A stretch of DNA of 32,000 nucleotides from Nitrosopumilus ureiphilus (GTDB lineage Archaea > Thermoproteota > Nitrososphaeria > Nitrososphaerales > Nitrosopumilaceae): NCBI RefSeq assembly GCF_013407185.1, contig NZ_CP026995.1, positions 591,578 through 623,577 on the forward strand. The letters are read 5' to 3'. The translations under genes and the position numbers were made by a program. Positions 7,214 through 28,938 of this stretch are shown piece after piece (position 1 is the first letter of the stretch; each line of letters begins with the position of its first letter). The notes under the pieces were generated by a model. That model made no database searches. It was not told the origin of the DNA and worked only from the letters and a program-made list of their open reading frames with translations.

Positions 7214-7435
7214 CTACTGCCAAACACAGTTTCTTTTTTCATGTATTTCTTTTCTGGCTCTATTACCTCTAGGCGTAATTCGTAATTTTACACTACAGCA
7301 AGGACATCGAATGCCCTGATATGTGAGGAATATCTCGCATACTGGGCACAATTTTTGCCCGTTTTCATACCTGTGTCGTCCTTCATATCCTGTCGCTCTG
7401 TACTTTGTACAGACTCCTTTACATGTAGTTACCAT
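7214..7435 (-). CDS. small CPCC zinc-ribbon protein with basic tail (paralog family, copy 1)
   Basis: CKGVC...C-x2-C...CPCC followed by LRITPRGNRARK. Paralogous to 16617-16775 and 28738-28938. Confidence 0.7.
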   Translation of the reverse strand: MVTTCKGVCTKYRATGYEGRHRYENGQKLCPVCEIFLTYQGIRCPCCSVKLRITPRGNRARKEIHEKRNCVWQ

Positions 7436-7479
7436 CTTGATGTTATTTTACAATTTTTTTAGATATTTAACTAGACTAG

Positions 7480-7493
7480 ATTACATCTGTAAA
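7480..7493. promoter_or_regulatory. operator-like site ATTACATCTGTAAA (1 mismatch), bidirectional
   Basis: TATA-like boxes at a 9-nt gap on both sides (TTAAATAT on minus, 7470-7463; ATTAATAC on plus, 7503-7510). Start codons lie 45 nt (7435, minus) and 40 nt (7533, plus) away. Confidence 0.65.
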
Positions 7494-7532
7494 GTGTATC
7501 AAATTAATACATGATGATTGTAAATCATACAA

Positions 7533-7736
7533 TTGCACTTTAACAAAAAAACAAAAATGATCATTTTACTTTCATTGATTTGGTTTATTATTACACTGCC
7601 ATTGCCTTGGATAATTAACAATCCCCTTGTTTCTGAATCTTCTTTTTATACAATATTGGGAATTATCGGCATCATGTCTATTCCATTTGTTATGTTGGGA
7701 GTGGCATGGAGTCTAAAGCCTGAATTGACTACTTAA
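7533..7736 (+). CDS. small two-TM membrane protein
   Basis: Hydrophobic 67-aa ORF with a TTG start at 7533, or ATG at 7557. Confidence 0.4.
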   Translation: MHFNKKTKMIILLSLIWFIITLPLPWIINNPLVSESSFYTILGIIGIMSIPFVMLGVAWSLKPELTT

Positions 7737-7902
7737 TTAATTGAAATGACATTTGTTTCGAAGATGCATCTTTATTTTTCTCCAATTGAAATATACAAAA
7801 ATCCTTACCATTCTTCTTGATAAGAATTCTTCTCAGAATATTTTTCAATTGATTTTCATGCTTTATGTTGAAAATATTCTTCTCCTGATTCAAATTATTT
7901 TG

Positions 7903-9282
7903 TTATGACCTTTTTGTAATCCATTCGGTAACTCTCGGCCATAATTCTTCATGTGCTTTTTTACTAATGCATAAGCCTACATGTCCTGTTGGATATTCTA
8001 TTAGTTCTTTATCTGTACTAGGAATGTGACACATAACATATTTGCTAGAATCTGATGGGACCAAATCATCATTTTGTCCAACTATGTTTAAAACAGGCAT
8101 AGTTAGTTTGTTAAGATCAACAAATTTTCCACCCACTTTCATCTTGTTATGGATTAGTTGATTTTTTTGGTAGATTTTTTTGATAATCTCTTTGTATACT
8201 TTGCCTGTAATCGGTCTACTATCATACAACCACATTTCAATTGCCATAAACTGTTGAATCTCATCTAAAGAACGTGGTTTTTTGAAATAGTTTGGATATT
8301 TTAGAACTGATTCCAAGGGATTTCTCATTATAAATGCAAAATTCAAAAGTTGTCCTGGAACATTTCCTAATTTTTCTATCATAATATCTAGATTGATTTG
8401 TTTTGTCCATTTTTCAATTACTGTGTCTGGCTTTTCCAAATCAAGCGGTGTTGCATGTAAGACGAGATTTTTTACCGTTTCTGGATGCATTGTAGTATAA
8501 ATAAGTGAAAGAATTCCTCCCCAACAATACCCAAACAACGTTATTTTCTTAAAACCTGTAATTTCTTGAATTTTTTTAACAGAGTTTTCTACATATTCAT
8601 GAATGTATTTTTCAAGAGTCATATCTTTATCAAAAGTAGTGGGTGTTTCCCAATCTGTTGCATATACGTCAAATCCTTTATTGATAAAATGTTGCACAAC
8701 ACTGATTTTAGGTAGCAAATCAAGGATGTAATGCCTGTTTATCAATGAATAAACAATAAGAATTGGGGTCTTGTTTGACTTTTTAGATTTGTAGTGAAGT
8801 AAATGATACTGTCCATTCATCTCTATTGATTCAGAGTCTGTTCTGTTTAGATTGTCCCGTATGGGTTCAAGTATTTTGTTAAGGAGAAAAAATTGTTCAG
8901 TATATTTTTGATACAACTCACCAATTCCAAAAAACTTTGACAATGTAAACCAAGAGTCAATGGTTTTTGAAAAGGAATTCACAAAATCATCTTTTTTTAT
9001 TCCTTTCCGGAACTCTTGATCAAAAGTCTTCCTCATTTTTGATTGTGAATTGTTGGATAAAAAATTACTTAATGTAATGTTATTTTCATACAAAGTTTTT
9101 GAAACTGAATCCGATAAAATGATATTGTATTTAATAAATAATTGGTTTTGATTCAGGACATAATCTATGTATGAAGATGAAAATTCACGTAATGTATCAT
9201 AATTATAATTATTCATTTTATGTTTATTTTTTTGCCATATCCAATGCAATCTTGAACGCATGGTTGGAGTACTTGGAACCAT
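7903..9282 (-). CDS. alpha/beta-hydrolase, class III PHA synthase (PhaC)-like
   Basis: G-x-C-x-G lipase-type box (FGYCWGG) and C-terminal His (PTGHVG). The start is probably an internal Met (MNNYNYD, about 9216). Confidence 0.65.
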   Translation of the reverse strand: MVPSTPTMRSRLHWIWQKNKHKMNNYNYDTLREFSSSYIDYVLNQNQLFIKYNIILSDSVSKTLYENNITLSNFLSNNSQSKMRKTFDQEFRKGIKKDDFVNSFSKTIDSWFTLSKFFGIGELYQKYTEQFFLLNKILEPIRDNLNRTDSESIEMNGQYHLLHYKSKKSNKTPILIVYSLINRHYILDLLPKISVVQHFINKGFDVYATDWETPTTFDKDMTLEKYIHEYVENSVKKIQEITGFKKITLFGYCWGGILSLIYTTMHPETVKNLVLHATPLDLEKPDTVIEKWTKQINLDIMIEKLGNVPGQLLNFAFIMRNPLESVLKYPNYFKKPRSLDEIQQFMAIEMWLYDSRPITGKVYKEIIKKIYQKNQLIHNKMKVGGKFVDLNKLTMPVLNIVGQNDDLVPSDSSKYVMCHIPSTDKELIEYPTGHVGLCISKKAHEELWPRVTEWITKRS

Positions 9283-9377
9283 CCCAAGATACTAAAATAT
9301 TCTGGAATAACATACTAAAATTTCTATCTGAGGTTAATTTAATGATGTCATGATTATCATCTTTGACATTAAATTAA

Positions 9378-9391
9378 TTTACAATTGTAAA
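9378..9391. promoter_or_regulatory. palindromic operator-like site TTTACAATTGTAAA (perfect)
   Basis: Lies in the divergent region between the PhaC-like gene and copA, 112 nt from the copA ATG. Confidence 0.6.
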
Positions 9392-9455
9392 ATACAATAT
9401 TGAAATATGATGAATAGATTTTGTTGAAAAATGAAATCAAGCATGAGAATCATCA

Positions 9456-9472
9456 TTTGTCTTTAAGACAAA
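9456..9472. promoter_or_regulatory. distinct 17-bp palindrome TTTGTCTT-T-AAGACAAA upstream of copA
   Basis: Perfect 8+8 inverted repeat ending 31 nt before the copA ATG. GGAG lies 10-13 nt before the ATG. Confidence 0.55.
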
Positions 9473-9502
9473 TCGTACTCATTAAAATTATCGGAGATTA
9501 GT

Positions 9503-11668
9503 ATGGCAAAAGATCCTGTTTGCGGCATGATTGTAAATGAAAAAACAGGAATATCTTCTGAATTTGGTGGTAGAAAATTCTACTTTTGTAGTCCTGTTTG
9601 CCAGAAAACATTCACAGAACCTGAAAAAGAGCTTTCACGAATGAAGAAGCGAATCTATGTGGCTACTTCAGGAGCTTTGGCCCTTGCAATAATTCGTGGA
9701 GCTCTGTATCTTGGTGTTGCAGCTGGTGCAATCACAGTTACATGGGTTCCTTTTCCAGAAATACCGTTTCTCTCATATGGCTTGCTTCTTTTCATAATTG
9801 TGACTCCAGTACAATTCATTGGAGGGTGGACGTTCTATGTTGGAGGGTACCATGCAATTATTAGAAGAACTGCAAACATGGACTTGCTAATTTCAATTGG
9901 AACACTCACTGCATATATCTACAGTACCATAGTTCTTTTCTTTCCTGATGCAATTCCAGGCGAAGAAAAGTTCGTCTATTTTGAGGTATCTGCTGTAATT
10001 ATTGCCTTTGTTCTTTTGGGAAAATACATGGAAGAGGCAATAAAAAAGAAAAGTTCATCTGCTGTAAGAAAATTACTTGACTTGAGTCCACCAATGGCAT
10101 GTGTGATTCGTGAGGGCTCAGAAATGGAAATTCCTTCTAATCAGATCAAGATGGATGATGTGATGATCGTAAAACCTGGTGAAAAAATTCCAACTGATGG
10201 AATTATCATTACAGGTGAATCCTCTATAGATGAAAAAATGATTACAGGTGAAAGCCTCCCTGTTGGAAAAAAGCCGGGTGATCAAGTTATTGGGGCTACT
10301 GTTAACAAACAAGGATTGCTTCATATCAAAGCAACCAAAATAGGAAAAGATACTGCATTATCTCAAATTGTTCATGTAGTAGAGCAAGCACAGTCTTCTA
10401 CTGCTAAAGTACAAAGGATGGCTGATTCTATTGCTGCGAAATTTGTTCCTTCTGTGGTAGGAGCAGCCGTCATAACATTTCTACTTTGGTATTTTGTTAT
10501 AGGTGATTTTGTTGCAGGCTTGCTTGCATTTGTTGCAGTTATGATTATTGCATGCCCTTGCGCACTTGGGGTAGCTACGCCTGCTGCATTAATGGTTGGA
10601 GTTGGAAAGGGTGCCGAATCAGGAATTCTAATCAGAGGCGCAGAATACTTGGAACGCTCACAAAAAATCAACACAATCGTATTTGACAAAACAGGCACCA
10701 TAACAAAAGGAGAGCCAGAGGTTACAGACATAGTGTCTTTGAATGAACTAAGTGAAAAACAAATTATTGAATATGGTGGAACAGTAGAATCGGGTTCTGA
10801 ACATCCTATCGCTAAAGCTGTTGTGAATAAAATGAAAGAAATGAATATTCCTCTTACTACTCCTGAAGAATTTGAATCATTAAACGGATTGGGGGTGAAA
10901 GCTATGGTTCATGGGAAAAAAATCTATACTGGAAACAGGAAAATGATGAAACAGTTTGGCATTGATGTTCGTCTTGCTGAACAAAACATGGAAAGACTAG
11001 AGTCAGAAGGAAAGACAGCAATAATGGTGATAATTGATGATAAAATAGAGGGCATCATTGCAGTTGCAGATTCATTAAAGGAAACCTCTCAAATGGCAAT
11101 TTTTGCACTTACTGATCTTGGGATAGAGTCAATTATGATTACAGGTGACAATGAAAAAACAGCACAAGCAATAGCAAAAAAAGTTGGTATTGAGAAAATC
11201 ATTGCAAATGTTTTACCCGCAGATAAAGCCAAAGAGATCAAGAAACTACAAGCACAAGGAAAATTTGTTGCAATGGTGGGTGATGGAATTAATGATGCCC
11301 CCGCTTTAGCACAAGCTGATATAGGGATTGCAATTGGTAGTGGTTCTGACATTGCAAAGGAAACAGGAGGAATAATTCTGATCAGAGATGATCTAATGGA
11401 TGTTTCTCGTGCAATTCGATTGAGCAGAGCAACCATGAAGAAAATCAAACAAAATCTTTTCTGGGCATTTGCATACAACTCTGGCGGAATTCCAATTGCA
11501 GCTCTAGGTCTACTTAGTCCAATCTTTGCAGCTGCTGCTATGGCTCTAAGTTCAATTTCAGTCATTGCAAATTCTTCTATGCTTAAGCGATACAATATTA
11601 CAAGTGGAGAAGAAAAATTAATGAAATCTGAGATGTTTCAAAAACAAAAACTTGAGGCTATGAGATAA
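9503..11668 (+). CDS. copA: copper-translocating P1B-type ATPase with N-terminal TRASH/YHS-type domain
   Basis: TGES, CPC (IACPCALG), DKTGT and GDGINDAP motifs. N-terminus DPVCGMIV...[12 protein letters not shown] replaces a GMxCxxC HMA domain. Confidence 0.96.
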
Positions 11669-11672
11669 TCAT

Positions 11673-13214
11673 ATGGATCTTATAATTAAGAATCTAGGTA
11701 TTGAATCTGGTGGAAAACCAATTGTATTTCTTAATGTTTTGGATGCTGATGAACTAGGTGTATCTGCATCGGGAAGGCTGCAGATTAATTCTGGAAGATC
11801 GTTAACAGTGATAGTTAACATTGCGTCAGTTACTGTACAAAAAGGATATTTGGGAATTAGCGAGGAAGTGCAAAAAATTTTAAAGTTAGAACAAGATTCA
11901 GTTGTTGATGTACAAATTTCACCATTTCCAAAATCTTTACAATTCATACGTAACAAACTAAATGGGAAAAAACTCACCGATAAAGAAATTCATGAAATCG
12001 TAAATGGGGTTGTTAATGGGAACCTCAATGAAAATGAAATTGCCGCTTTTGTAACTTCATTACATATTCAAGGATTGAGTCTTGATGAGGCCACTAGTCT
12101 TTCTTCATCAATGGTGATGACTGGAAAGCAACTTGTTCTTAATTCTCCTCAAATTGTAGACAAACATAGTATCGGTGGTGTTCCTGGAGATAAAACGACT
12201 TTGCTTGTAGTTCCCATCATTGCAGCTTCTGGACTGATTATACCAAAAACATCCTCTAGGGCAATCACATCTGCTGCTGGAACAGCTGATAGGGCAGAGA
12301 CATTGATGCCAGTGGATTTAGGAATTGAAGAAATGAAAGAAGTGGTTCATAAAACAAATGGTTGTATTGTGTGGGGTGGCGCTCTAGATTTAGCACCTGC
12401 TGATGATATTTTTGTAAAAACAGAATATTCATTGTGTATTGATCCTTTACTATTACCTTCGATTATGAGTAAAAAGAAAGCAGTTGGCGCAACTCATTTG
12501 GTAGTTGACATTCCAACAGGGCGAGGCGCCAAAGTAAAAACAATTGGAGAGGCAGATCTACTTGCAAAAGACATTATTGAGTTAGGAAAACGACTTGGAA
12601 TATACTGTCATTGCGTATTGACTTATGGGGAGCAACCAATTGGAAATACCATAGGTCCATCTCTTGAAGCACGAGAAGCACTTGAGGTATTGATGAAGAC
12701 ATCTCAAGTTCCGGATTTGTTTGACAAAGCATGTCATGTTGCAGGTTCAATTTTTGAAATAACTGGAAAAAAGAATGGATTTGAATTAGCAAGAGATATT
12801 CTTCTTTCAGGAAAAGCAGAAAAAAAACTCAGAGAAATAATATCTCAACAAGGGGGTCAATCAGAAATTAAACCATTTGATTTTGTTATCGGTACTAATA
12901 CATTTGAATACCGTTCTGTCAATGAAGGACAAGTTTTATGGATGGATAACAACATTATGGTCGAAATAGCAAGAGCTGCAGGTGCTCCAAAAAACAAAGG
13001 CTCTGGAATTATATTTAATAAGAAAAATGGAGACAAAGTTTCCAAAAATGATGTTCTTTTTACTGTTTACGCTGAAAAATCCCCGAAACTCTCAAGAGCA
13101 GAACAAATTCTTGATGAAAAAATGCCTATGGGAATAGGGGACAAAATGGAAATGTTGATCCATAGAGTAAAAGAATCCCCAGTTGTAAGAAGATCTTTTA
13201 TTTTGGATAGATAA
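11673..13214 (+). CDS. AMP phosphorylase / thymidine phosphorylase family protein
   Basis: 513 aa with an N-terminal extra domain and the DKHSIGGVPGDKTT signature of the pyrimidine-nucleoside phosphorylase family. Confidence 0.82.
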   Translation: MDLIIKNLGIESGGKPIVFLNVLDADELGVSASGRLQINSGRSLTVIVNIASVTVQKGYLGISEEVQKILKLEQDSVVDVQISPFPKSLQFIRNKLNGKKLTDKEIHEIVNGVVNGNLNENEIAAFVTSLHIQGLSLDEATSLSSSMVMTGKQLVLNSPQIVDKHSIGGVPGDKTTLLVVPIIAASGLIIPKTSSRAITSAAGTADRAETLMPVDLGIEEMKEVVHKTNGCIVWGGALDLAPADDIFVKTEYSLCIDPLLLPSIMSKKKAVGATHLVVDIPTGRGAKVKTIGEADLLAKDIIELGKRLGIYCHCVLTYGEQPIGNTIGPSLEAREALEVLMKTSQVPDLFDKACHVAGSIFEITGKKNGFELARDILLSGKAEKKLREIISQQGGQSEIKPFDFVIGTNTFEYRSVNEGQVLWMDNNIMVEIARAAGAPKNKGSGIIFNKKNGDKVSKNDVLFTVYAEKSPKLSRAEQILDEKMPMGIGDKMEMLIHRVKESPVVRRSFILDR

Positions 13215-14099
13215 TTACCATTCTTGAATTGCCTTGGAAATAATACCTGACAAATCAACAAGTGAATGTTTTCCAGAAATAGCATTCGTACTGACAATTT
13301 TGTATACCCCTGCATTTCTTAGATTTTTTTCAGCATTACCTGCCAACACTGCATGAGTGCATGCAACATAAATTCTTCCAATGTTTTTCTTTTTAAAAAA
13401 TTTTATTGCCTTTACAATGCTGTCTCCCGTGCTTACCATGTCATCTAACAAAACCACGTCTTGAAAATCCACATTAATCAATTTAGATGATTTAATGACT
13501 AATTCTCCTGTCTTTCTATTCCTTTGTTTGTTTAATGCAATTGAGTTGCAATTCAGAATTTTTGCAAACTCCTTTGCTTTGTTTTCCCAAAAAAGATCAG
13601 GAGATACAACTAGTGGATGATGAAGGTTTATCTTTTTAAAATAATTTGCAAGTAATGGTACTGCAGACAGATTTTTTGATTGAATTTTGAAAAAATTCAG
13701 CTCTTCACCACTATGAATATCCACTACAATTAGTTTAGTTGCCCCTGCAGCCTTGAACAGTTTTGCAATGACAGATATTGTGATGATTTCTCCTTTCAAA
13801 AATTCCTTGTCTTGCTTTGCATATCCAACATATGGAATTACTGCATATACCACTGTTGACATTTTTCTTGCCTGATAGATTAATGAAAAGGCATGTACAA
13901 GATTCGTATCTACAGGAATGTGTGTTGATTGAACTACTATAATTTTTTGAGCTTTTATCATTCCTTTTACTGTGATTTTACTTTCACCATCAGGAAATTT
14001 CTTTAATTCCGTCTTCAAGAATTTTGAATTCAGTTTCCTTGAAATTTTTTGAGCTAAACCTTCTGATGATGGTCCTCCAATAACAAGATATTTTTCCAA
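13215..14099 (-). CDS. prs: ribose-phosphate pyrophosphokinase (PRPP synthetase)
   Basis: PRPP-binding loop VLLDDMVSTGDS and overall Prs-like layout. Confidence 0.88.
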   Translation of the reverse strand: MEKYLVIGGPSSEGLAQKISRKLNSKFLKTELKKFPDGESKITVKGMIKAQKIIVVQSTHIPVDTNLVHAFSLIYQARKMSTVVYAVIPYVGYAKQDKEFLKGEIITISVIAKLFKAAGATKLIVVDIHSGEELNFFKIQSKNLSAVPLLANYFKKINLHHPLVVSPDLFWENKAKEFAKILNCNSIALNKQRNRKTGELVIKSSKLINVDFQDVVLLDDMVSTGDSIVKAIKFFKKKNIGRIYVACTHAVLAGNAEKNLRNAGVYKIVSTNAISGKHSLVDLSGIISKAIQEW

Positions 14100-14169
14100 T
14101 ACATGTAATGCCTAATCATATGTCTTAAATTTAATGAAATAAAATGAACTGGGATCATTGAAATTCTTC

Positions 14170-14183
14170 TTTACAATTGTAAA
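14170..14183. promoter_or_regulatory. palindromic operator-like site TTTACAATTGTAAA (perfect)
   Basis: Perfect site 71 nt from the prs start. No clear TATA-like box at the 9-nt gap on the prs side. Confidence 0.5.
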
Positions 14184-14287
14184 ATAGTGTAATTATCTAC
14201 AATAAAATCTGTCAGTAAATCAAATTGAAGATAAAATCTAACACAAAAATTTCTTTGCTGATAATTTTTGGTACAATAATTACATAC

Positions 14288-14301
14288 TTTATAATTGTAA
14301 A
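14288..14301. promoter_or_regulatory. TTTATAATTGTAAA (1 mismatch): operator-like site or simply the TATA box
   Basis: Only 29 nt from the ATG at 14330. The TTTATAAT part is itself a good TATA box at a suitable distance for a leaderless mRNA. Confidence 0.4.
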
Positions 14302-14329
14302 TACGATGTCATAATGAATAACATCTGAT

Positions 14330-15067
14330 ATGATTGAAGAAACTCTTGAACACATTGGAATTCTTTCACCTTTATTGATAATGGGGTTGGGACTTGCAGT
14401 TGGAATACAACATGCATTTGAGCCAGATCATGTTACAGCGGTAAGTACTCAGATCTTAAAATCAAAATTTATGGCAAAATCTACAAAACAACTAATCAGA
14501 GAATCCATAACAAAATCATCAATTTTAGGTGTACTTTGGGGATCTGGGCATACTACAACCCTTGTTTTAATTGGATTTTTGGTATATGCATTTGCATTAA
14601 CAATACAGGACAAAATCTTTTCAGGATTTGAATTCATAGTTGGGATAATGCTTGTATTTTTAGGGGTAACAACAATTCTTAATAAAAAAATCCAATTAAA
14701 ACACAAACATCCACATCAGCATAAAGATGGAACCATTCATCTTGAAAAACATACTCATGATGACTCTGAACATAGACACACTCACAAATCATATCTAATT
14801 GGTCTGATACATGGATTGGCGGGAAGTGGAAGTTTGGTAGTTTTGACTGCTTTTTCCATGAATGATATTGGTATGATTTTGGGATTTATTGCAGTCTTTG
14901 GGGTTGGCTCTATGGCTGGAATGGTATTTGTAGGAAGCTTGATTGGCATTCCATTTGCATTTGGAACTAGATTTACATCAATCCAAAAAATATTTCGTTA
15001 TGTGACAGGAACACTAAGTCTTATTATTGGATTTAACATAATGTATCAAATTGGGTGGTTATTTTAA
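14330..15067 (+). CDS. NicO/RcnA-like metal (Ni/Co-type) transporter with His-rich loop
   Basis: H-x4-DH signature (HAFEPDH), multi-TM, and central loop HKHPHQHKDGTIHLEKHTHDDSEHRHTH. Confidence 0.7.
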   Translation: MIEETLEHIGILSPLLIMGLGLAVGIQHAFEPDHVTAVSTQILKSKFMAKSTKQLIRESITKSSILGVLWGSGHTTTLVLIGFLVYAFALTIQDKIFSGFEFIVGIMLVFLGVTTILNKKIQLKHKHPHQHKDGTIHLEKHTHDDSEHRHTHKSYLIGLIHGLAGSGSLVVLTAFSMNDIGMILGFIAVFGVGSMAGMVFVGSLIGIPFAFGTRFTSIQKIFRYVTGTLSLIIGFNIMYQIGWLF

Positions 15068-16616: not shown

Positions 16617-16775
16617 TCATTTACTTTTTCTCTTTCCACGAAGATGTGTTCTGCAACATGGGCATTGTATTCCATCATACTCTAAATATGCATCACATGA
16701 AATACATCTTTTTACTCCCTGACCATATCTTTTATTTTCTGACCTATATCGTTCACAAATTCCCCCGCAAGCCAA
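16617..16775 (-). CDS. small CPCC zinc-ribbon protein (paralog family, copy 2; not in ORF track)
   Basis: Hand translation from TTG at 16775: (M)ACGGICERYRSENKRYGQGVKRCISCDAYLEYDGIQCPCCRTHLRGKRKSK, stop at 16617. Same Cys spacing and basic tail as 7214-7435 and 28738-28938. Confidence 0.6.
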   Translation of the reverse strand: MACGGICERYRSENKRYGQGVKRCISCDAYLEYDGIQCPCCRTHLRGKRKSK

Positions 16776-16892: not shown

Positions 16893-17234
16893 TCATTTTT
16901 TTGTAATCTTGTTTTTGGAAAATGAAATTGAGGGCTCAAATTTTGTAATGCTGATTTTGGCATCTTTGATTAAACTCTGATAAAATGTTGCAATATGTCC
17001 TGATTCTGTAAAATCTGTTTTTTCTGTAATTAAGGAGCATTCTTTGAGACTTTGGATTTGTTTGTATACTGAGCTGAGTGGAATTTTCAATTCTTTAGAA
17101 ATATCTAGAACTGTTTTTGGTTCTTTAATTATTGAAAATAAAATGTATCTTGATTCTAAATGTATAAGTTCATTGAACATTTTATGAGAAATATCGTATT
17201 TTTCTACTAGTGATGGTTTGAGTTTTGCTGCCAA
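16893..17234 (-). CDS. ArsR-like winged-helix transcription regulator
   Basis: ILFSIIKEPKTVLDISKELKIPLSSVYKQIQSLKE is a typical wHTH. The start is uncertain: TTG at 17234, or the internal MFNEL. Confidence 0.6.
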   Translation of the reverse strand: MAAKLKPSLVEKYDISHKMFNELIHLESRYILFSIIKEPKTVLDISKELKIPLSSVYKQIQSLKECSLITEKTDFTESGHIATFYQSLIKDAKISITKFEPSISFSKNKITKK

Positions 17235-17967: not shown

Positions 17968-17977
17968 TCCAACCATT

Positions 17978-21173: not shown

Positions 21174-21201
21174 ATTATAATTTGTTTATCATCATTTATT
21201 T

Positions 21202-21215
21202 TTTTCAAATGTAAA
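21202..21215. promoter_or_regulatory. operator-like site TTTTCAAATGTAAA (1 mismatch)
   Basis: In tandem with the site at 21160; starts are 42 bp apart. Confidence 0.45.
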
Positions 21216-21226
21216 GAATTATTAAT

Positions 21227-21475: not shown

Positions 21476-21517
21476 GGTTTCACACTTTATTTGAATTTAA
21501 TAAAATGATTACTGTAA

Positions 21518-21560
21518 TTTTTATTTTCATGCCTATCTACATCCATTTTCATCACCAAAT
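21518..21560 (+). repeat. short dispersed repeat, copy 2
   Basis: ttttattttcatgcctatcta is shared exactly with copy 1. atccattttcatc is shared exactly with copy 3. Confidence 0.6.
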
Positions 21561-21891
21561 GCATGCATATTCTCCCTAAAGAGGATCTAAAATGAATAAT
21601 TCTAATTTCTGATAAAGTCACTCATTAAAAGAAACAGTCAATATTTTCTATGTTAAATTATCGTTCAAATTCAAAACTCTGAAATAGGAATTGTTTTTTG
21701 TATAGGGTTCGTCACAATTACAAGCTAATTTTTGTGTTTAAATCATTTTCTTTTTAAAATACATTCATACCACATAATAGAAAATTAACAGCTTTCTGAG
21801 AAGAGGGAGGATCAATAAATAGAAATGATTGGTGTAGGATGAACTACTCTCTTAATTTTTCATACATTTTACTGGATAATTTGTGACATTT

Positions 21892-21943
21892 CTTTTGGTC
21901 TGTCTATATTCCCAAAAGTGTAATAATGCTCCTATCGGATTTT
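21892..21943 (+). repeat. degenerate direct copy of the tRNA-Glu 3' end plus trailer hairpin (att-like remnant)
   Basis: 34 identical positions in about 41 aligned columns against 30254-30294. The hairpin is kept with a different stem: CTTTTGG/CCAAAAG here, GGGGG/CCCCC at the tRNA. Confidence 0.6.
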
Positions 21944-22032
21944 GTCAGATCAGTTAAACACTTCTCACTTTTGTTTATAAAGAAAACTTCATCTTTCCTA
22001 AACCTCTCATTGGTATTTTTACTACGCTAATT

Positions 22033-22473
22033 TTAGAAATATTCTTTTTTAGGACGTTTCTTTTTTTGTTTAGTTAAGAAAAATCCCACACTAATTACTG
22101 GAACCGATAGGACCATAAACAAAATCGGTACATACATGACTACATCTGTAAGATAATTTTCATTAATTTTATCTAACATGGAGTAAGAAACATACATTCC
22201 GATAAACATCATCACACCACCAATCATGATCATACTACCAATTGATTTAGAACCATATTGTTTTGACATGATATATGATACTGCTGCTAAAATCCCAGCT
22301 GGTGCAACTCCAATAGAAATGAATTGAAATATTTTGGGATCTGGTTCAAATACCTGTATAAATTCAATATTTTCAGGTACATAAATCATAAAATTATATA
22401 CAGAAATTATTTCTCCTGCAAACATTACAAATAACCCCATACTGGTTATCGCAAGCCATTTCTCAATTGCCAT
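22033..22473 (-). CDS. four-TM membrane protein, function unknown
   Basis: Hydrophobic 146-aa ORF with a basic C-terminal tail. Confidence 0.6.
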   Translation of the reverse strand: MAIEKWLAITSMGLFVMFAGEIISVYNFMIYVPENIEFIQVFEPDPKIFQFISIGVAPAGILAAVSYIMSKQYGSKSIGSMIMIGGVMMFIGMYVSYSMLDKINENYLTDVVMYVPILFMVLSVPVISVGFFLTKQKKKRPKKEYF

Positions 22474-22544
22474 ATTGCTCGTAGAATTTTATTGACACAT
22501 TAACTCTTTAGAAATAAAACCACTCAAGTATTAATTGATATTAC

Positions 22545-22558
22545 TTTACAATTGTAAA
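22545..22558. promoter_or_regulatory. palindromic operator-like site TTTACAATTGTAAA (perfect)
   Basis: Lies in a divergent region. 9-nt gap, then ATTAATAC (22535-22528) on the minus side. 72 nt from start 22473 and 63 nt from start 22621. Confidence 0.65.
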
Positions 22559-22620
22559 AAATATGATGTTTTTAGAGCAACAATAAATAAAAAACTATTA
22601 CAACGTGAAACTATACATAT

Positions 22621-23157
22621 ATGCAGAAAGATGGATGGCTTCTTACAATCATTATTGCAGTTCTTGTTTTAGGATCTTTACAAATTGGAATTATGTATGA
22701 CTGTTCATTACAAGGAAAAAATTTTAGCTTTTTTGATTGTATTGAAATTATTGAAGAGCCATCATATGTTCAGGATATTGCAACATTATCAATACAATCA
22801 GATAACTCTGTAATTTTAATAAATGTGGAAATTGCAGATGAACTTCAAAAACAAATCAATGGGTTGATGTTTAGACAAAATCTGGATTGGGATTCAGGTA
22901 TGTTGTTCGTGTATGATAGTGAAAAGAAACGATCATTTTGGATGAAGAATACATTGATTTCCTTAGATATGTTGTTTATAGATGAAGACTTTAGAATAAT
23001 CGACATAAAAGAAAATGTACCTCCATGTATAATTGAATCATGTCCAAATTATACTTCTAACATGCCTGCAAAATACGTCTTAGAAGTCAATGGTGGATTT
23101 ACCATGACAAATAATATTGAAATTGGAGATTTGGTAACATGGCATTCTAAAATATAA
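22621..23157 (+). CDS. DUF192 (COG1430)-family protein, exported
   Basis: N-terminal TM. GLMFR...GMLFV...FWMKNTLISLDMLFID pattern typical of DUF192. Confidence 0.8.
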   Translation: MQKDGWLLTIIIAVLVLGSLQIGIMYDCSLQGKNFSFFDCIEIIEEPSYVQDIATLSIQSDNSVILINVEIADELQKQINGLMFRQNLDWDSGMLFVYDSEKKRSFWMKNTLISLDMLFIDEDFRIIDIKENVPPCIIESCPNYTSNMPAKYVLEVNGGFTMTNNIEIGDLVTWHSKI

Positions 23158-23174
23158 AAAAATATACAAGCAAT

Positions 23175-24020
23175 TTATTTTTCCACAGGATTTCCTATCA
23201 TGTTACCCCATTCAGTCCAAGAACCATCATAGTTTCGAACCTGGGGATATCCAAGTAGATATTTTAGGACAAACCAACTGTGAGAAGATCTTTCTCCAAT
23301 TCGGCAATAACAGATTACATCTTTGTCTGGAGTTACACCTTTTGGCTCATAGTTTTGTCGTAGTTCTTCAACTGCTTTGAAGGTTCCATCAGCGTCATTG
23401 ACTGCAGTTGCCCATGGAATATTATTTGCGCCCGGAATATGCCCGCCTCTTTGTGCATGCTCCATCGGATATTCTGGCGGAGCAGTGATTTGACCAGTAA
23501 ACTCTGCAGGCGATCTAACATCAACCATTACAGTGTCTTCTTTGTCTAATGCTCTGCTTACATCAAACAAGTATGCACGTAATCCCTCATCTGGAGGTTG
23601 TGCAACATATGTTGTTGATGGTAATTGTGGTTCATCAGTAGTGTAATCTCTACTTTCTAATTCCCATTTCTTTCGTCCACCATTCATTATTTTGAGATTC
23701 TCATGACCATAGATTTTGAAAACCCAGAAAACAAATGCTGCAAACCAGTTGTTAAAGTCACCATAAAGAATCACTTCAGTGTCAGCAGTAATTCCGTTTT
23801 TAGCCATTAAAGCCTCAAATTGTTTTTTGCTAATGATGTCTCTTGTAACTGGATCATTAATGTCACGTTTCCACCAAATCAGAGTTGCGTCATTAATGTG
23901 ACCTTTTTGATATCCATTAACTGGATCATAATCAACTTCAACTATTTTTCTATGTTCATTTGGGGGATTTTGTGATACCCATTCAGTATCAACTAAAACT
24001 TCAGGATGTGCGTAACTCAT
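23175..24020 (-). CDS. tandem-rhodanese thiosulfate sulfurtransferase
   Basis: Two rhodanese-like halves. Active-site loop CYCRIGERSS in the C-terminal half. Confidence 0.88.
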   Translation of the reverse strand: MSYAHPEVLVDTEWVSQNPPNEHRKIVEVDYDPVNGYQKGHINDATLIWWKRDINDPVTRDIISKKQFEALMAKNGITADTEVILYGDFNNWFAAFVFWVFKIYGHENLKIMNGGRKKWELESRDYTTDEPQLPSTTYVAQPPDEGLRAYLFDVSRALDKEDTVMVDVRSPAEFTGQITAPPEYPMEHAQRGGHIPGANNIPWATAVNDADGTFKAVEELRQNYEPKGVTPDKDVICYCRIGERSSHSWFVLKYLLGYPQVRNYDGSWTEWGNMIGNPVEK

Positions 24021-24057
24021 GATCTAGATAATATTGTGAGATATTTAGTTTATCTAC

Positions 24058-24071
24058 TTTACAATTGAAAA
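24058..24071. promoter_or_regulatory. operator-like site TTTACAATTGAAAA (1 mismatch)
   Basis: 9-nt gap, then CTAAATAT (24048-24041) on the minus side. The rhodanese ATG is 38 nt from the motif edge. The divergent DsbA-like gene starts 94 nt away. Confidence 0.65.
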
Positions 24072-24164
24072 ATTAAAATTCAAAAAGTCTAAGCATTATG
24101 AAATATGTTGTAATGAAATTATTTATTAAAAAAGAAATAATAAGTTCAAAAACTAATTTTTATC

Positions 24165-24809
24165 TTGAAAACATCCATTGTGATAATTTTATTGATAGTT
24201 GCCGGATTTGTAACATATGGTGTTTTTTTCACTCAACCTTATACTTCAGAAATCGTAATTAGTAAAAATTTTGGAACCATCACAACATCATTAGGTTCTC
24301 CATTTTTAGGCTCATCTCAAGCACCTATCACAATAATTGAATTTGGAAATTATCCATGTATTGAGTGTCAAACATGGTTTCAGGAAACTAGGCCTGATAT
24401 AATCAGGGATTATATCAATCAGGGAGAAATCAATATGATCTTTATTGATACACAACTTACAAAAGACATTCCACTTGCATCTTTTGCTTCATACTGTGCT
24501 AATGATCAGAAAAAATACTGGGATTATCATGACGCATTATTTCGTAATGTGCTAGAAAATAAAATAGATGTTAATCACCTAAAACAATATGCTGTGGAAC
24601 TTGGATTGGATATGAAGTTATTTGAAGAATGTCTAGACACTAAAAAATATGAAAAGAAGATAAAATACAGCATATATGAGGCAAAGAAGAATGGGATTAA
24701 TAGACTTCCAACATTCATAATAATGGATTCCAGTGGAAAATATGAAAAAATTTTGGGAGCACAGCCATATTCTATTTTTAAAGAAAAAATAAGATCTATG
24801 CAGGATTAA
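24165..24809 (+). CDS. DsbA-like thiol:disulfide oxidoreductase
   Basis: N-terminal TM and CxxC (FGNYPCIECQTW). TTG start in the track. Clear paralog of 3387-4052. Confidence 0.85.
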   Translation: MKTSIVIILLIVAGFVTYGVFFTQPYTSEIVISKNFGTITTSLGSPFLGSSQAPITIIEFGNYPCIECQTWFQETRPDIIRDYINQGEINMIFIDTQLTKDIPLASFASYCANDQKKYWDYHDALFRNVLENKIDVNHLKQYAVELGLDMKLFEECLDTKKYEKKIKYSIYEAKKNGINRLPTFIIMDSSGKYEKILGAQPYSIFKEKIRSMQD

Positions 24810-24957
24810 TTATAGTCACAATAAACGGATTTACAAAATATGCAATTCATGCATATAAAATTGCTTTGGATATTGTAAAAAATATAATTCAATTTTATAA
24901 TATTTTGTAACTAAGATTAGAACACTTTATGAGTTCCTAGTTCAGGTTTAAACAAGT

Positions 24958-25623
24958 ATGGTTTTACAAAAAATTAATGTGATTTCTTTGTTTACACTTT
25001 TGTTGACGTTGATATTTAGTAGTGATATACTTGCTGAAGAAGAAAAATTTAGAACTCAATCAGTAGACGTGTTTAGTGTTGTTGACAGCTCTATTGGGAT
25101 TATCAAAGATCCCAATACAAAATTAACAATAGTAGATTTAGGATCATTTTATGGAATAGGAGGAAATGGAACAATTCCTGATAAAATAAAATTTTTTAGA
25201 GATAATCATCTTTGGACAACAATAAATAAAGAAACGAGAATTTCACCATCAACATCTCATAGTGAATGGCAAATACCACAAACGTTTTTTTTCAATGAAC
25301 TTCCAGGAACATACAAGCTTATTCTAATAACAAACAACACAGAAACGTTAACCTTTGAATTCATGGTAAAACAAATTACAGAAGAATCTAAAGAAAATTA
25401 TTTAATCAATAATATGAATAATAATTCTATAGAAGAAAATGATGAAAGGCGTTTCCATTCTAAAATGCCTCCTCTAAAACAAATTGCAAATGGAATATCT
25501 TCGATAGATGTAATATGTAAAGAAGACTTGCAACTAGTATTCAAAAATATGGATGATAATCCTGCTTGTGTGAAAACAACAACTGTAGATAAATTAATTG
25601 AACGAGGTTGGGCTAAACTTTAG
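24958..25623 (+). CDS. secreted protein, function unknown
   Basis: Signal peptide. C-terminal two-Cys segment (VICKEDLQLVFK...PACVKTTTVDKLIERGW). Confidence 0.55.
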   Translation: MVLQKINVISLFTLLLTLIFSSDILAEEEKFRTQSVDVFSVVDSSIGIIKDPNTKLTIVDLGSFYGIGGNGTIPDKIKFFRDNHLWTTINKETRISPSTSHSEWQIPQTFFFNELPGTYKLILITNNTETLTFEFMVKQITEESKENYLINNMNNNSIEENDERRFHSKMPPLKQIANGISSIDVICKEDLQLVFKNMDDNPACVKTTTVDKLIERGWAKL

Positions 25624-25862
25624 ACTTGTTTCAAATCGAACTTTTTCTTATTAATGCAGCCTTAAGATAAAAATTTAGGATTTGAACTTCTATGCGTCTT
25701 GAGATTAATCCTCATCTAAGATCATCAATCTTATATTTAATGGGACTTTGTATGTTGTAGACTTGGCCCAAAGCTGATGTCTTCATTGATTGTAATGGGG
25801 TTAATCCTCTATTCCAATTTCTTATTTTATAATATCAACATCCTTTTATTTACCATGTATAG

Positions 25863-26726
25863 ATGATGTGTGTGAGGACATTAGCTTCAATCTTATTGCT
25901 TTTTACAATAATTTCTGTTATCAGTATTTTTCCATCTGCTTTTGCACAAGTCAGCATTACAACAGGGCCTGGTAATTTGAGTACTCCTGGATGTGAGGAA
26001 ACAAATGAATGCTACACTCCAAGTGAACTAATAGTACCTGTTGGTGAAAAAATAATAATGACCAACATTGACACTACAGGAATACACACATTTACTTCTG
26101 GAACCGTAGATGGTTTTTCTCCTAGCTCTGATGGAAAGTTTGATTCTGGAATATTAAACGCAGATCAATCCTTTGAATTTTCTGCAGATGCTGCAGGTGA
26201 ATATCCATACTACTGTATGTTACATACTTGGATGCAAGGTACAATTACAGTACAAGAAGCTATGGCTGAACCTGTACTTCAAATGGCAACTATAGTACAA
26301 CCTGATGAAATGATGGCAGAAATTATTGCTAGTGATGGAGTTGCAAATGAGGCGATGACAATTGATCTTATTATTACCGATCTTGAAGGTAATGGCGTAG
26401 AACACATTACATACAATATCCAGGCAACTCAAGGTTCTGAAATTTTACTAAATGAAGAGGGTCATATGCACAAGGGCACGATTACTAATAATCATGTGAC
26501 TTCTACTTTACCTGTAGATGCGTCAGATGACATGCCTGTTGTAATTAGCGTTGAATCTGTAGGATTTGGACACGATGAACAATATGTGGATTTTTCAAGT
26601 GAGATAACCACAAAACAAGTAGTTCCAGAATTTGGTACCATAGTAATGATGATTCTCGTAGTTGCAATAGTTAGTATGGTTGCAGTAACTACAAAGTCTA
26701 AACTCAGCATCATGCCAAGAATTTAG
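25863..26726 (+). CDS. cupredoxin-domain protein with PEFG-CTERM sorting signal
   Basis: GIHTFTSG ... YYCMLHTWMQGTITV (H, C, H, M ligands). C-terminal VPEFG followed by a hydrophobic helix and a basic tail. Confidence 0.88.
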   Translation: MMCVRTLASILLLFTIISVISIFPSAFAQVSITTGPGNLSTPGCEETNECYTPSELIVPVGEKIIMTNIDTTGIHTFTSGTVDGFSPSSDGKFDSGILNADQSFEFSADAAGEYPYYCMLHTWMQGTITVQEAMAEPVLQMATIVQPDEMMAEIIASDGVANEAMTIDLIITDLEGNGVEHITYNIQATQGSEILLNEEGHMHKGTITNNHVTSTLPVDASDDMPVVISVESVGFGHDEQYVDFSSEITTKQVVPEFGTIVMMILVVAIVSMVAVTTKSKLSIMPRI

Positions 26727-26779
26727 ATAACTTCTGTTACTTTTCTAAAAATATGTTGCATCATAAACAAAAGTCTAAT

Positions 26780-26890
26780 CTATGAAAATGGAGTTTTGAT
26801 TATTCCATTTGCCACTAGAAACATCAATGCTACTGGAACGCCAGTTCCTATTAAAATTCCAACTAAAACCAAACCATCTTTTTTATCCAT
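26780..26890 (-). CDS. 36-aa single-TM membrane peptide (not in ORF track)
   Basis: Hand translation: MDKKDGLVLVGILIGTGVPVALMFLVANGIIKTPFS. A perfect operator site lies 46 nt upstream. A degenerate paralog is at 18154-18264. Confidence 0.5.
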   Translation of the reverse strand: MDKKDGLVLVGILIGTGVPVALMFLVANGIIKTPFS

Positions 26891-26935
26891 TATCCATCAA
26901 AAATACGTTCTCTATTCTTTGTTTAATACTTTCGA

Positions 26936-26949
26936 TTTACATTTGTAAA
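26936..26949. promoter_or_regulatory. palindromic operator-like site TTTACATTTGTAAA (perfect)
   Basis: 9-nt gap, then TTAAACAA (26926-26919) on the minus side. 46 nt from the small-ORF ATG at 26890. Confidence 0.65.
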
Positions 26950-27015
26950 TCTAAAAAAAATTATTCCTGAAAATTATTCAAATCCATGGGAGTTGAATCT
27001 TAGAAAAATTATTTT

Positions 27016-27029
27016 TTTACATTTGTAAA
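27016..27029. promoter_or_regulatory. palindromic operator-like site TTTACATTTGTAAA (perfect)
   Basis: 9-nt gap, then TTAAGTAT (27039-27046) on the plus side. Its flank resembles that of site 5463. The next tracked ORF is 156 nt away. Confidence 0.6.
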
Positions 27030-27184
27030 CTATGATTATTAAGTATATGTCTACATATTTTTCTAATGTGATATTTTCTAACAATATTAAATTAAAAGAA
27101 TACAATACATTGTTAAGCAAATTTTATTAATTTGAAGTAAATTATGAAAATGAACAAGGGAAATGGGCCAAAATTAAGGGCAGT

Positions 27185-27898
27185 ATGGTAAATGGAACAT
27201 TAACTGAACTACAAAAGCAAACTCAAGAAGAGAGGGATAGTTTATTATCAAAACTTAGAGAAGATTCTACCTTTCAAGAATGTGAAAAACAACTAGCCAC
27301 AGAAAGATTTGCAGAACAAAATTTGGAATTTACTTTCGATAAAAATATGACATCTATTTTATTAGAATATCAAAATGAAGAATTTCAAACTGCAACCATA
27401 AATGCTGAATTTGATGTAGATGAATTAACCAAAATTAATCTTGAAAAACCTGAAAGTGATTATTCATACTTACTACCTCTTTTAGGTATATTGCCAATAG
27501 TTGTTACAGTGTACTTTTTGTACAAAAAACTGAAAATAAAAAAGAAAATGCCAGTAAAACCTGTGATTTCAAAGAGTTTATCAAAAAAATTTGATTACAT
27601 CTTAGCATCAAATAATTTTATCCTACAAGCAAAAGAGAATTTTGAAGAAAAGCAATACAAAGAAACATATGGAAAAGTCAATCAAGCTATTCAACTTTTC
27701 TTGAGTTATGAATTAAAGTTGAATAAAGAAATCGCCAATGAGGATATTTTATTAGATCTTACCAATACCAAGTATCCTGTGGCTGACATTGCAAATTGTT
27801 TCAGACTATCAAGTTTAGTTGAATTTGTCAAGTATGTTCCAAATGAAGATGAATTTTACAAAATGATTACTTTGACTGAAGATCTTTTTCATGCCTAA
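27185..27898 (+). CDS. single-pass membrane protein, function unknown
   Basis: Acidic N-terminal part, central TM (LLPLLGILPIVVTVYFLY) and a helical C-terminal domain. Confidence 0.55.
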   Translation: MVNGTLTELQKQTQEERDSLLSKLREDSTFQECEKQLATERFAEQNLEFTFDKNMTSILLEYQNEEFQTATINAEFDVDELTKINLEKPESDYSYLLPLLGILPIVVTVYFLYKKLKIKKKMPVKPVISKSLSKKFDYILASNNFILQAKENFEEKQYKETYGKVNQAIQLFLSYELKLNKEIANEDILLDLTNTKYPVADIANCFRLSSLVEFVKYVPNEDEFYKMITLTEDLFHA

Positions 27899-27925
27899 TC
27901 GCATCCATTTTCATCCACAAAAATG
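27886..27925 (+). repeat. short dispersed repeat, copy 3
   Basis: ttttcatgccta and atccattttcatc are shared exactly with copy 2. Overlaps the stop codon of the ORF at 27185-27898. Confidence 0.5.
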
Positions 27926-27975
27926 ATTCATCCCCTTAAGTAATTACTTCATTCTCTGAAGTATGAATAAGCAAA

Positions 27976-28419
27976 TTATTCATCATTAGATTCATCTTCA
28001 AATTTTTTGTCAATCTCTTCTTGTTTTTCTTTGAATTGTTGGTATTTTTTATCCCATTTAGATAAAACTATCCATTGTCTAATTCCCACCCCTAACCACA
28101 CTAAGGAAATTACAAAAATAATTAGTTGTGGGGGACGAAAAAAGTGGTTAGATCTTTTTTCTCCAAATTTATGTTTCATATCCTGATATTCTTCTTCAGT
28201 TATATCTCCACTTGCTAATCTTTCTTGAAGACGTTCTTCAAATTGTTCATGGAAGGGAGATTCCAAAGTAGATGTCATAACAAGTAAAGCAATAGGAGGA
28301 ATAATCAAAACGGTTAGAATCATCACCATGAACATCTTTTTTGTTCTGCTTAATTGGAACATCATCCCATCTAGTATCTCAAAGATGCTTTCATGGTTGT
28401 TGTCTTTGGGTTTACTCAT
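27976..28419 (-). CDS. membrane protein with SHOCT-like motif
   Basis: Two TMs flanking RLASGDITEEEYQDMKHKF. Overlaps the upstream wHTH gene by 8 nt, which suggests translational coupling. Confidence 0.6.
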   Translation of the reverse strand: MSKPKDNNHESIFEILDGMMFQLSRTKKMFMVMILTVLIIPPIALLVMTSTLESPFHEQFEERLQERLASGDITEEEYQDMKHKFGEKRSNHFFRPPQLIIFVISLVWLGVGIRQWIVLSKWDKKYQQFKEKQEEIDKKFEDESNDE

Positions 28420-28705
28420 TTTTATTTCCTCTTGGAAATAGTTCTTCGTATGGTTCTAAAACCTGTTTGAAAATTTCTTTACCTTTATCAGATATCTTGT
28501 ATTTGATTATGGATTTGTTTCCCCAAGGTTCAATATTTCTTTCTATCATCTCTTTTTTTACCATATCATCTAAAATTCCCTTGTGTTTTACATTGTTTAA
28601 TCCACAAATACTCATCAATCTACTTTGATTCATCTCGCCAAATTCAAAAAGTTTCAACAATACATCCTTCCTAATGTAGATTCTATCACGATATTCACGA
28701 CCCAA
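28412..28705 (-). CDS. small winged-helix DNA-binding protein
   Basis: 97 aa. MNQSRLMSICGLNNVKHKGILDDMVKKEMIE is followed by a beta-wing-like KYKISDKG. Confidence 0.65.
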   Translation of the reverse strand: MGREYRDRIYIRKDVLLKLFEFGEMNQSRLMSICGLNNVKHKGILDDMVKKEMIERNIEPWGNKSIIKYKISDKGKEIFKQVLEPYEELFPRGNKNE

Positions 28706-28737
28706 TATGATTCACCACTAATCTTTGCCATGTTTTA

Positions 28738-28938
28738 TCACAACTGATTCCATACTTTTTTGCTCCGAGGTTTAGATCTAAGTCTAGTTTTACAACATGG
28801 ACAAAATGCTCCTTCATATTCAAGAAAGCAGTTGTACAGTCCACATCTTTTCTGTCCTGATTTATAACGTAAATTGTTTGGCATAGAATTTGGTTTTAAT
28901 CTCTCACAAATTCCCTTACATATTTGTCCCATAGGCAC
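28738..28938 (-). CDS. small CPCC zinc-ribbon protein (paralog family, copy 3)
   Basis: ICKGICERL...RCGLYNC...FCPCCKTRLRSKPRSKK. Ends 32 nt upstream of the wHTH gene on the same strand. Confidence 0.7.
   Translation of the reverse strand: MPMGQICKGICERLKPNSMPNNLRYKSGQKRCGLYNCFLEYEGAFCPCCKTRLRSKPRSKKVWNQL

Follow-up and report, generated by a model that had tools for sequence, protein, structure and literature searches.

Three small genes in a 32,000-nucleotide stretch of the Nitrosopumilus ureiphilus genome (contig NZ_CP026995.1, positions 591,578 to 623,577; called the window below) belong to an unnamed family of predicted zinc-ribbon proteins. Judged from its sequences, this family is specific to the Nitrososphaeria and consists of small (50–75 amino acids), strongly basic members. 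We estimate the probability that these proteins act by binding nucleic acid at roughly one half. A preliminary description of the window had presented the three genes as a local family of three members. Instead, the family is found throughout the class; this genome has ~19 intact copies, and individual genomes have as many as 34. The reference is a complete genome of 2.17 Mb with 33% GC, and the genome coordinates given below refer to it.

All three genes of the window are located on the minus strand. Copy 1 (7214–7435) starts with ATG and encodes a CPCC zinc-ribbon protein of 73 amino acids with eight cysteines and a net charge of +10. Copy 2 (16617–16775) starts with TTG and encodes 52 amino acids with seven cysteines. 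Copy 3 (28738–28932), the first gene of a three-gene operon, probably starts with ATG and encodes 64 amino acids, also with seven cysteines. The coordinates given in the preliminary description were confirmed, and the seven cysteines that it had ascribed to each protein are present in copies 2 and 3 but not in copy 1, which has eight. The open reading frame (ORF) of copy 3 exists as described, but its start is more likely to be the ATG at 28932 (MGQICKG...) than the GTG at 28938, because the database copy and the orthologs begin there. The alignment of the three copies contains 17 invariant positions, including C5, C9, C30, C44, P45, C46 and C47 and, further, R22, Y23, G26, L51 and R52. A hidden Markov model (HMM) of the family, iterated on this genome, matches copies 1, 2 and 3 with E values of 4e-27, 6e-20 and 3e-27, respectively. 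Their homology is thus far beyond chance, and the proposal that the three ORFs form one family is borne out. Neither Pfam nor NCBIfam recognises a family in any of the three.

The short ORF of copy 2 had been proposed as a gene in the preliminary description. An in-frame stop codon is located two codons before its TTG. The orthologs at 13 loci in other genera begin with MTCRGICERY, and the codon that corresponds to the TTG is ATG in seven of them and TTG in five. A twin of copy 2 in the same genome (1586793–1586951) shares 80% protein identity with it, with dN (nonsynonymous divergence) at 0.125, dS (synonymous divergence) at 1.38 and dN/dS at ~0.09, and the 150-nt flanks on each side have decayed to ~50% identity. 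Judged from the aligned start and the low dN/dS, copy 2 is a genuine gene. Copy 1 is likewise under purifying selection. Its orthologs in other Nitrosopumilus share 70–83% identity with it, and dN/dS is ~0.07 against one of them (locus L027). The idea that copy 1 is inverted within its surroundings in another genome was discarded, since the flanks are not homologous. Copy 3 reads CGLYNC where close orthologs show CGLCDC or CGVCDC; this looks like a ligand swap inside a C-x2-C-x-C subfamily.

The preliminary description had called for a survey of the genome for further copies. The iterated HMM search returned 22–23 matches, of which ~19 are intact family genes and 3–4 are fragments. Across 301 genomes sampled from the phylum, the family occurred in each of the 44 Nitrosopumilaceae genomes and in all genomes of three other Nitrososphaeria families (12/12, 18/18 and 12/12), and it was essentially not found in the ~46 other families of that sample. 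Nitrosopumilaceae genomes carry between 1 and 34 copies; the 34 matches were counted in a 2.16-Mb genome of another genus. An exhaustive profile search of protein clusters retrieved 2,613 clusters at E<=1e-3. No sequence family of Pfam, NCBIfam or the PDB matches these proteins. The named matches come from Nitrosopumilus, Nitrosotalea, Aigarchaeota/Caldarchaeales, Wolframiiraptor and unclassified Nitrososphaerota, and their labels read "hypothetical protein" or were transferred automatically from other zinc ribbons, as with the name "RpoP" that JGI has attached to some members. No description of the family was found in the literature searched.

Members of the family are also encoded by viruses. 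Six published genomes of Nitrosopumilaceae spindle-shaped viruses contain seven-cysteine members, and one of these viruses carries two. The best match in BFVD, a library of viral structures, is a protein of an uncultured marine virus (E 6e-5, template modelling (TM) score 0.73), and a search of PHROGs gave chance-level matches only. A zinc-binding-domain protein, perhaps a member of the family, has been listed among the core genes of the spindle-shaped viruses (PMC10866085). Five IMG/VR contigs hold copies that resemble the core copy described below. Around these copies the gene order of the host's core locus is missing, and the contigs may therefore be mobile elements.

Outside the Nitrosopumilaceae the gene is usually present in a single copy and encodes a protein of ~68 amino acids with four cysteines only. 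The sequence of this form (RRSYANGYKYCSRCRVYHLTDxVRCPYCGxLLRNSPRKKK) follows the pattern R-x-Y-x-x-G-x-K-x-C-x2-C-x10-C-P-x-C-G-x-x-L-R-x-x-P-R-K-K-K and is ~70% identical between three families that differ in GC content. Comparison of the profiles of the seven-cysteine and four-cysteine forms gives a probability of 97.7% and an E value of 1.5e-12. From these comparisons, the ancestral form is a single-copy four-cysteine ribbon. Since the four-cysteine relatives keep only the CxxC and the CPxC, the predicted zinc ribbon is assigned to C30-x2-C33 ... C44-P-x-C47 (copy 1 numbering), and these positions are at least 90% conserved in the family. The N-terminal C-x3-C and the middle cysteine of CPCC are both present in ~297 homologues and both missing in ~84; the middle cysteine occurs alone in ~5 homologues and the N-terminal pair alone in ~0. 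By this pattern, the three residues are co-occurring additions to the ancestral ribbon. They probably constitute a second metal or redox site. No fourth conserved ligand for this putative three-cysteine site is visible.

The predicted structures agree with a zinc-ribbon fold. In the AlphaFold2 model of the four-cysteine form the two β-hairpin knuckles are modelled with a predicted local distance difference test score (pLDDT) of 93–95; the mean pLDDT of the model of copy 1, which is of the seven-cysteine type, is 74. Predicted strand pairs surround both knuckles, as is the case in zinc ribbons. A Foldseek search of the PDB returned only zinc ribbons, with E values of 0.13–1 and TM scores of 0.35–0.69, the domain being too small for significance. 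The neighbours found, Nop10, eL40, aIF2-gamma, Spt4, RanBP2 fingers and the LetA ribbon, are accordingly all non-significant matches. The four-ligand knuckle pattern, the predicted hairpins and the strongly basic character of 17 of the 19 paralogs agree with the earlier characterization of the proteins as zinc ribbons with a basic tail. As a fold class, the zinc ribbon is nothing unusual; it is the family itself that stands out, with its seven-cysteine variant, its invariant core copy, its expansions, its viral copies and its adjacency to regulators.

Several known groups resemble the family in part. It shares with the zinc ribbons of Nop10, eL40, RpoP/RPB12, Spt4 and aIF2-gamma the arrangement C-x2-C ... 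C-P-x-C-G and two predicted β-hairpins, and with eL40 (LRLKKK) and RpoP also a basic segment after the second knuckle. Unlike these proteins, the family has a conserved R-Y-x-x-G-Q-K-R lead-in of its own, and its Nitrosopumilaceae members are multi-copy and carry three extra cysteines. It was rejected as L40e (PF01020), a canonical 55-amino-acid L40e (MPITDPEKKRIAQQARLVMRICFKCGCRN...) being encoded at 1526737–1526904. It was rejected as Nop10 (PF04135) as well; a canonical Nop10 is encoded at 63166–63312 (87 bits), and the family lacks the P-x-R-F-S-P-x-D segment. An RpoP-like gene separate from the family (…YSCLRCG…IKCICGFRVFTKVRPPVVKTVKAI) is found at 1363385–1363486 with a score of 21 bits, slightly below the cut-off, and an assignment of the family to RpoP/RPB12 (PF03604) was rejected on this ground. 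Since L40e, Nop10 and the RpoP candidate are encoded separately, the family replaces none of them.

The RanBP2/NZF fingers (Nup153, RYBP/YAF2) are likewise small two-hairpin domains with C-x2-C-x10-C-x2-C spacing and a basic stretch behind them. YAF2 matches weakly at the profile level (E 0.03), and RanBP2 fingers recur in the Foldseek results with TM scores of 0.5–0.7 on target length, none of them significant. The spacing fits the RanBP2/NZF signature (W-x-C-x2-C-x3-N-x6-C-x2-C), but the signature tryptophan and asparagine are not conserved, and this assignment was rejected. The RanBP2 family is essentially eukaryotic. The top matches in the profile search of the PDB are GATA-1 (E 0.004) and AreA (E 0.0095), and the succession C...RY..G..C..C..FL...G with a basic tail is indeed reminiscent of GATA fingers. 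GATA fingers (PF00320) show C-x2-C-x17-18-C-x2-C, with the four cysteines in a single site and a helix beginning at the second pair. This type was nevertheless rejected: the first pair of the family is C-x3-C, the helix expected after the second pair is not predicted at 33–40, and Pfam reports no GATA match. The first cysteine pair is missing in the four-cysteine homologues, which use CPxC, and the zinc site therefore cannot be of the GATA type. In size and in their single domain the proteins are comparable to archaeal zinc-finger micro-proteins (haloarchaeal CPxCG proteins, Brz) and to zinc-binding proteins of archaeal viruses, which also measure 50–75 amino acids. Like this family, the micro-proteins occur in multiple copies, frequently lack annotation and are also found in viruses, and they are thought to be regulatory. 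They differ from it in sequence family and cysteine pattern, and the family is set apart by its restriction to the Nitrososphaeria, its universal core member and its basic arm.

One gene, located at 2003039–2003509, has orthologs that are the top family match in each Nitrosopumilaceae genome; we call it the core copy. Over its first 68 residues the protein hardly varies among eight genera, and a low-complexity tail follows that is rich in lysine, alanine and threonine and differs greatly in length. Despite this variable linker, the core copy and its orthologs (loci L052–L059) share (E/S)IAIKA as a conserved C-terminus. The last residues of the RpoP candidate encoded in this genome are VKTVKAI, and the likeness to the IAIKA of the core copy may reflect a docking motif or coincidence. 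The core gene stands in a conserved row, consisting of genes for a PUA-like protein, NAC, two small proteins, the zinc ribbon, a proteasome-chaperone-4-like protein and UbiD. An AbrB/PhoU-type regulator gene is found close to the four-cysteine genes and also to several core copies, which supports the orthology of the two. A transposase-like gene encoding 349 amino acids (2003842–2004891) is inserted next to the core gene, on its upstream side, in this genome and is absent from that position in eight relatives.

Most of the paralogs are strongly basic. Seventeen of the 19 have a net charge of +7 to +20 and an isoelectric point (pI) of 9.0–10.0. The ribbon is followed by a conserved arm, LRxKPRxKK (L-R-x-K/T-P-R-x-K-K), which reads NSPRKKK in the ancestral form and which we take to be similar to DNA-binding turns of the SPKK/AT-hook type. 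In the tandem pair of family genes at 491074–491492, the upstream gene encodes 56 amino acids with a pI of 6.0 and has lost its basic tail.

The conservation of the core copy raises the question whether it belongs to one of the universal machines of the cell. The core protein would then serve a conserved ribonucleoprotein or the transcription machinery, such as the ribosome, RNA polymerase or an H/ACA-like particle, as a subunit or assembly factor peculiar to this lineage. It would bind RNA or protein, and the paralogs would act as variants of it or as regulatory forms, some of which viruses would use to redirect the machine. This would account for a core copy that is almost 100% conserved across genera and a gene that keeps ~70% identity across families differing in GC content. 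The nearest structures, namely the ribbons of Nop10, eL40, aIF2-gamma and Spt4 and RPB12-like ribbons, the C-terminal IAIKA as a suggested docking motif and the housekeeping row with NAC and the proteasome-chaperone-like gene point in the same direction. Yet the canonical L40e and Nop10 and the RpoP candidate have genes of their own at other sites, 20–34 fast-diverging paralogs are unusual for machine subunits, and every one of the structural matches is non-significant. Considering both sides, we regard the machine role of the core protein, together with the variant role of its paralogs, as unlikely.

The surroundings of the three window genes bring metals into consideration. The window encodes HtrA, DsbD, three DsbA-like proteins, a YHS-domain copper P-type ATPase, plastocyanins and a rhodanese, and it holds three of the 19 copies within 32 kb (binomial P 0.003). 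A palindrome, TTTACA-N2-TGTAAA with one mismatch, is located at 7480–7493, 45 nt upstream of copy 1. With one mismatch allowed, this palindrome occurs at 70 sites in the genome, of which 33 fall into three bins of 50 kb within the 550–750 kb region and 20 lie in the window (205–27016). This distribution looks like that of a regulon covering the copper and thiol-redox genes of the region. The preliminary description had named the CPCC proteins as candidate readers of this palindrome. Within 200 nt upstream, however, the site is present at copy 1 only, that is, at one of the 19 family genes, and the CPCC proteins are thus not singled out as its reader. The idea was rejected, given the clustering of the sites in the 550–750 kb region and copy 1 being the only member with a site. 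A dimeric helix-turn-helix regulator is the conventional candidate for such a palindrome.

The other role that had been suggested for the proteins, metal sensing through their cysteines, has to be weighed against the same background. As handlers of metal they would be zinc or copper buffers, chaperones, sensors or thiol-redox switches and their genes would be targets of the adjacent Fur and ArsR metalloregulators, comparable to the bacterial zinc-ribbon paralogs of ribosomal proteins that are controlled by Zur. Such a role is consistent with 7–10 cysteines in 52–73 amino acids, with an extra three-cysteine site that is specific to a lineage of copper-dependent ammonia oxidisers, with the accumulation of three copies among copper and thiol-redox genes, and with a divergent Fur neighbour conserved across genera and further neighbours of the ArsR type. 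Against it, four of the cysteines belong to the ancestral structural ribbon, and the four-cysteine form, whose motif is a classical one of this kind, is universal in thermophilic relatives that do not oxidise ammonia. The basic arm and the H1-like tail would play no part in metal buffering, most copies do not lie beside metal-related genes, and the gene has been kept by viruses. Metal handling as the function of the family is, on balance, rather improbable.

A recurring pairing with winged helix-turn-helix (wHTH) genes was the central point of the preliminary description, and the neighbouring genes are as it had stated. On the minus strand, 117 nt upstream of copy 2, lies a gene (16893–17234) encoding a TrmB/ArsR-like wHTH protein of 113 amino acids that falls just below the Pfam cut-offs. 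In the operon of copy 3 the second gene (28412–28705, minus strand) encodes an HTH_45/Sso10a-like wHTH protein of 97 amino acids (Pfam HTH_45 E 3e-5; NCBIfam Sso10a family E 1.6e-5) and the third (27976–28419, minus strand) a membrane protein of 147 amino acids with a SHOCT motif (Pfam E 4e-7). The zinc-ribbon and wHTH genes are separated by a 32-nt gap, and the wHTH and membrane protein genes overlap by 8 nt.

Adjacency to wHTH genes exceeds chance in two genomes. Using six Pfam models, 64 wHTH loci were found in the reference genome and compared with 18 independent family loci. Four of the 18 are located within 1 kb of a wHTH locus, against 1.03 expected (P 0.016), and six within 2 kb, against 2.0 expected (P 0.01). 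The Fur gene beside the tandem pair at 491 kb is outside the tested wHTH set. For a genome of another genus, G194, homologues of the wHTH genes of the reference genome were sought within ±1.5 kb; they were found at 13 of 25 independent family loci and in five of 39 control windows, which were evenly spaced and not matched for small-gene density (Fisher P 0.0013). The enrichment is ~4-fold in the two genomes. Some of the arrangements are conserved. The operon of copy 3 is kept whole in G194 (locus L095), where the HTH_45 ortholog (E 1e-36) directly follows the zinc-ribbon gene and a homologous membrane protein gene occupies the same position. The divergent Fur gene beside the tandem pair 491074–491492 is conserved in another genus (L088), and the arrangement TrmB–YjgF–zinc ribbon is conserved across genera (L076, L026). 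The pairing with a long ArsR-like gene, as at 525513/525714, where the gap is 0 nt, recurs in G194, with the genes co-directional here and convergent there. An AsnC-type gene is located 7 kb from copy 1 in the reference genome and is divergent from a copy 1 ortholog in G194. A homologue of the copy 2 wHTH protein was detected near the ortholog at one of 13 loci only (L038, another genus; 44% identity, ~1 kb upstream).

Around two thirds of the copies in this genome and half of those in G194 have no wHTH gene within 1.5 kb, and the universal core copy has no wHTH neighbour. The pairing is thus a tendency of a subset, and a real one, and not a defining property of the family. The partners include HTH_45, ArsR-like, TrmB, Fur and AsnC types in varying orientations, which argues against one fixed two-component module. 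A fusion of the Rosetta-stone kind was rejected, since the ten long members scanned contain only tandem CPCC domains or low-complexity tails and no fusion to a wHTH domain. Of the pairing claimed earlier, the above-chance adjacency and the conserved copy 3 operon hold up; its generality does not, most copies being without a wHTH gene and the partner families differing. The module that had been derived from it, in which a zinc ribbon and a wHTH protein act as two components, is not upheld for the family at large, with partners from five families, no fixed orientation, a core copy that stands without a wHTH gene and no fusions.

In its strict form, the two-component proposal makes the zinc ribbon an obligate subunit of the adjacent wHTH protein, the two jointly reading an operator such as the palindrome. 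Precedents for such a combination are TFE-alpha, which joins a wHTH domain with a zinc ribbon, and archaeal MBF1, with a zinc ribbon and a helix-turn-helix domain. The enrichment of wHTH genes in two genomes, the tight spacing at 525513/525714 and in the copy 3 operon, and the conservation across genera of this operon, of the Fur-divergent pair and of the TrmB–YjgF–zinc ribbon arrangement all speak for it. Against it stand the many copies and the universal core copy that have no wHTH neighbour, partners from at least five wHTH families, a 525513-type pair whose orientation changes between genomes, the ArsR-like partner of copy 2 that recurs at one of 13 orthologous loci, the lack of fusions among the ten long members and a palindrome upstream of a single family gene. 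We consider an obligate partnership quite unlikely for the family as a whole and less so for copy 3.

We propose instead that the family works through nucleic acid. The ancestor of the Nitrosopumilaceae would have gained the N-terminal C-x3-C and the cysteine in the second knuckle that completes the CPCC. One nearly invariant housekeeping copy, with a histone-H1-like tail rich in lysine and alanine, would have been retained, while the family multiplied to 2–34 diverging paralogs per genome, some of which were presumably picked up by viruses. The ribbon would position the conserved basic arm on nucleic acid, AT-rich DNA being the most probable target. The core copy would then be an architectural or general factor and the paralogs locus-specific accessory regulators, a subset of which may be co-expressed with, or controlled by, the adjacent wHTH regulator.

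Several observations weigh against this proposal. The best Foldseek E value is 0.13, that is, no structural match is significant, and the nearest structures, Nop10, eL40 and aIF2-gamma, are components of ribonucleoproteins. Zinc ribbons also serve protein–protein contacts and RNA binding. A nearly invariant core copy would be at least as compatible with a role as subunit of a conserved machine, such as the ribosome or RNA polymerase, as with one as chromatin protein. The basic tail is missing from two paralogs, 491256 (pI 6.0) and 1740811 (with an acidic helical tail). The enrichment of wHTH genes could reflect the clustering of small regulatory genes in flexible regions, the controls not having been matched for gene size. 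Inspection by eye of the upstream regions of the 19 family genes revealed no shared motif.

The binding of nucleic acid can be extended to a layer of gene control common to the Nitrososphaeria. In this layer the invariant core copy, equipped with the H1-like tail, would serve chromatin or transcription as a general cofactor, and the 2–34 paralogs would be interchangeable specificity or accessory subunits for different wHTH regulators. The three-cysteine site of the Nitrosopumilaceae would make DNA binding responsive to Cu(I) or to thiol redox state, and the spindle-shaped viruses would bring their own copies to hijack the system. That all of these elements apply jointly is very doubtful.

Two further observations concern the neighbours of the paralogs. 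Three paralogous genes for large secreted proteins that contain Asp-rich repeats of the thrombospondin-type-3-like kind (918922–920490, 928452–929930 and 1548789–1550258) each adjoin a CPCC paralog, which suggests that these pairs arose by cassette-wise duplication. A conserved but unannotated ORF of ~41–51 amino acids with ten cysteines overlaps the 3′ end of two CPCC paralogs. It is found on the plus strand at 1422732–1422887, where it reads MKCQECNHEKGKCQCLCCCSISQIGCVYCILPVLGYRQIKK..., and a second time just after 1834380–1834571. On another Nitrosopumilus contig the ORF has been called as a gene (L024:4179–4331) and reads MKCKECNHEKGKCECLCCCSISQIGCIYCILPVFGY.... In the predicted product, a hydrophobic stretch lies between a cysteine-rich head and a basic tail.

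Ammonia-oxidising archaea rank among Earth's most abundant microbes. To our knowledge, almost nothing is known about their gene regulation and the organisation of their DNA. Chromatin proteins have been reported to be very scarce in Nitrosopumilus maritimus (PMC7613761). The family described here bears several marks of importance: the core copy is conserved nearly letter for letter, some genomes hold dozens of copies, viruses have retained the gene, and copies cluster with regulators. The shortest members escape gene callers and the remainder are annotated as "hypothetical protein". The family merits a profile model by which its members can be annotated. Once known, the binding target of these proteins would provide a handle on regulation, metal biology and the conflict between viruses and their hosts in the ammonia-oxidising archaea.

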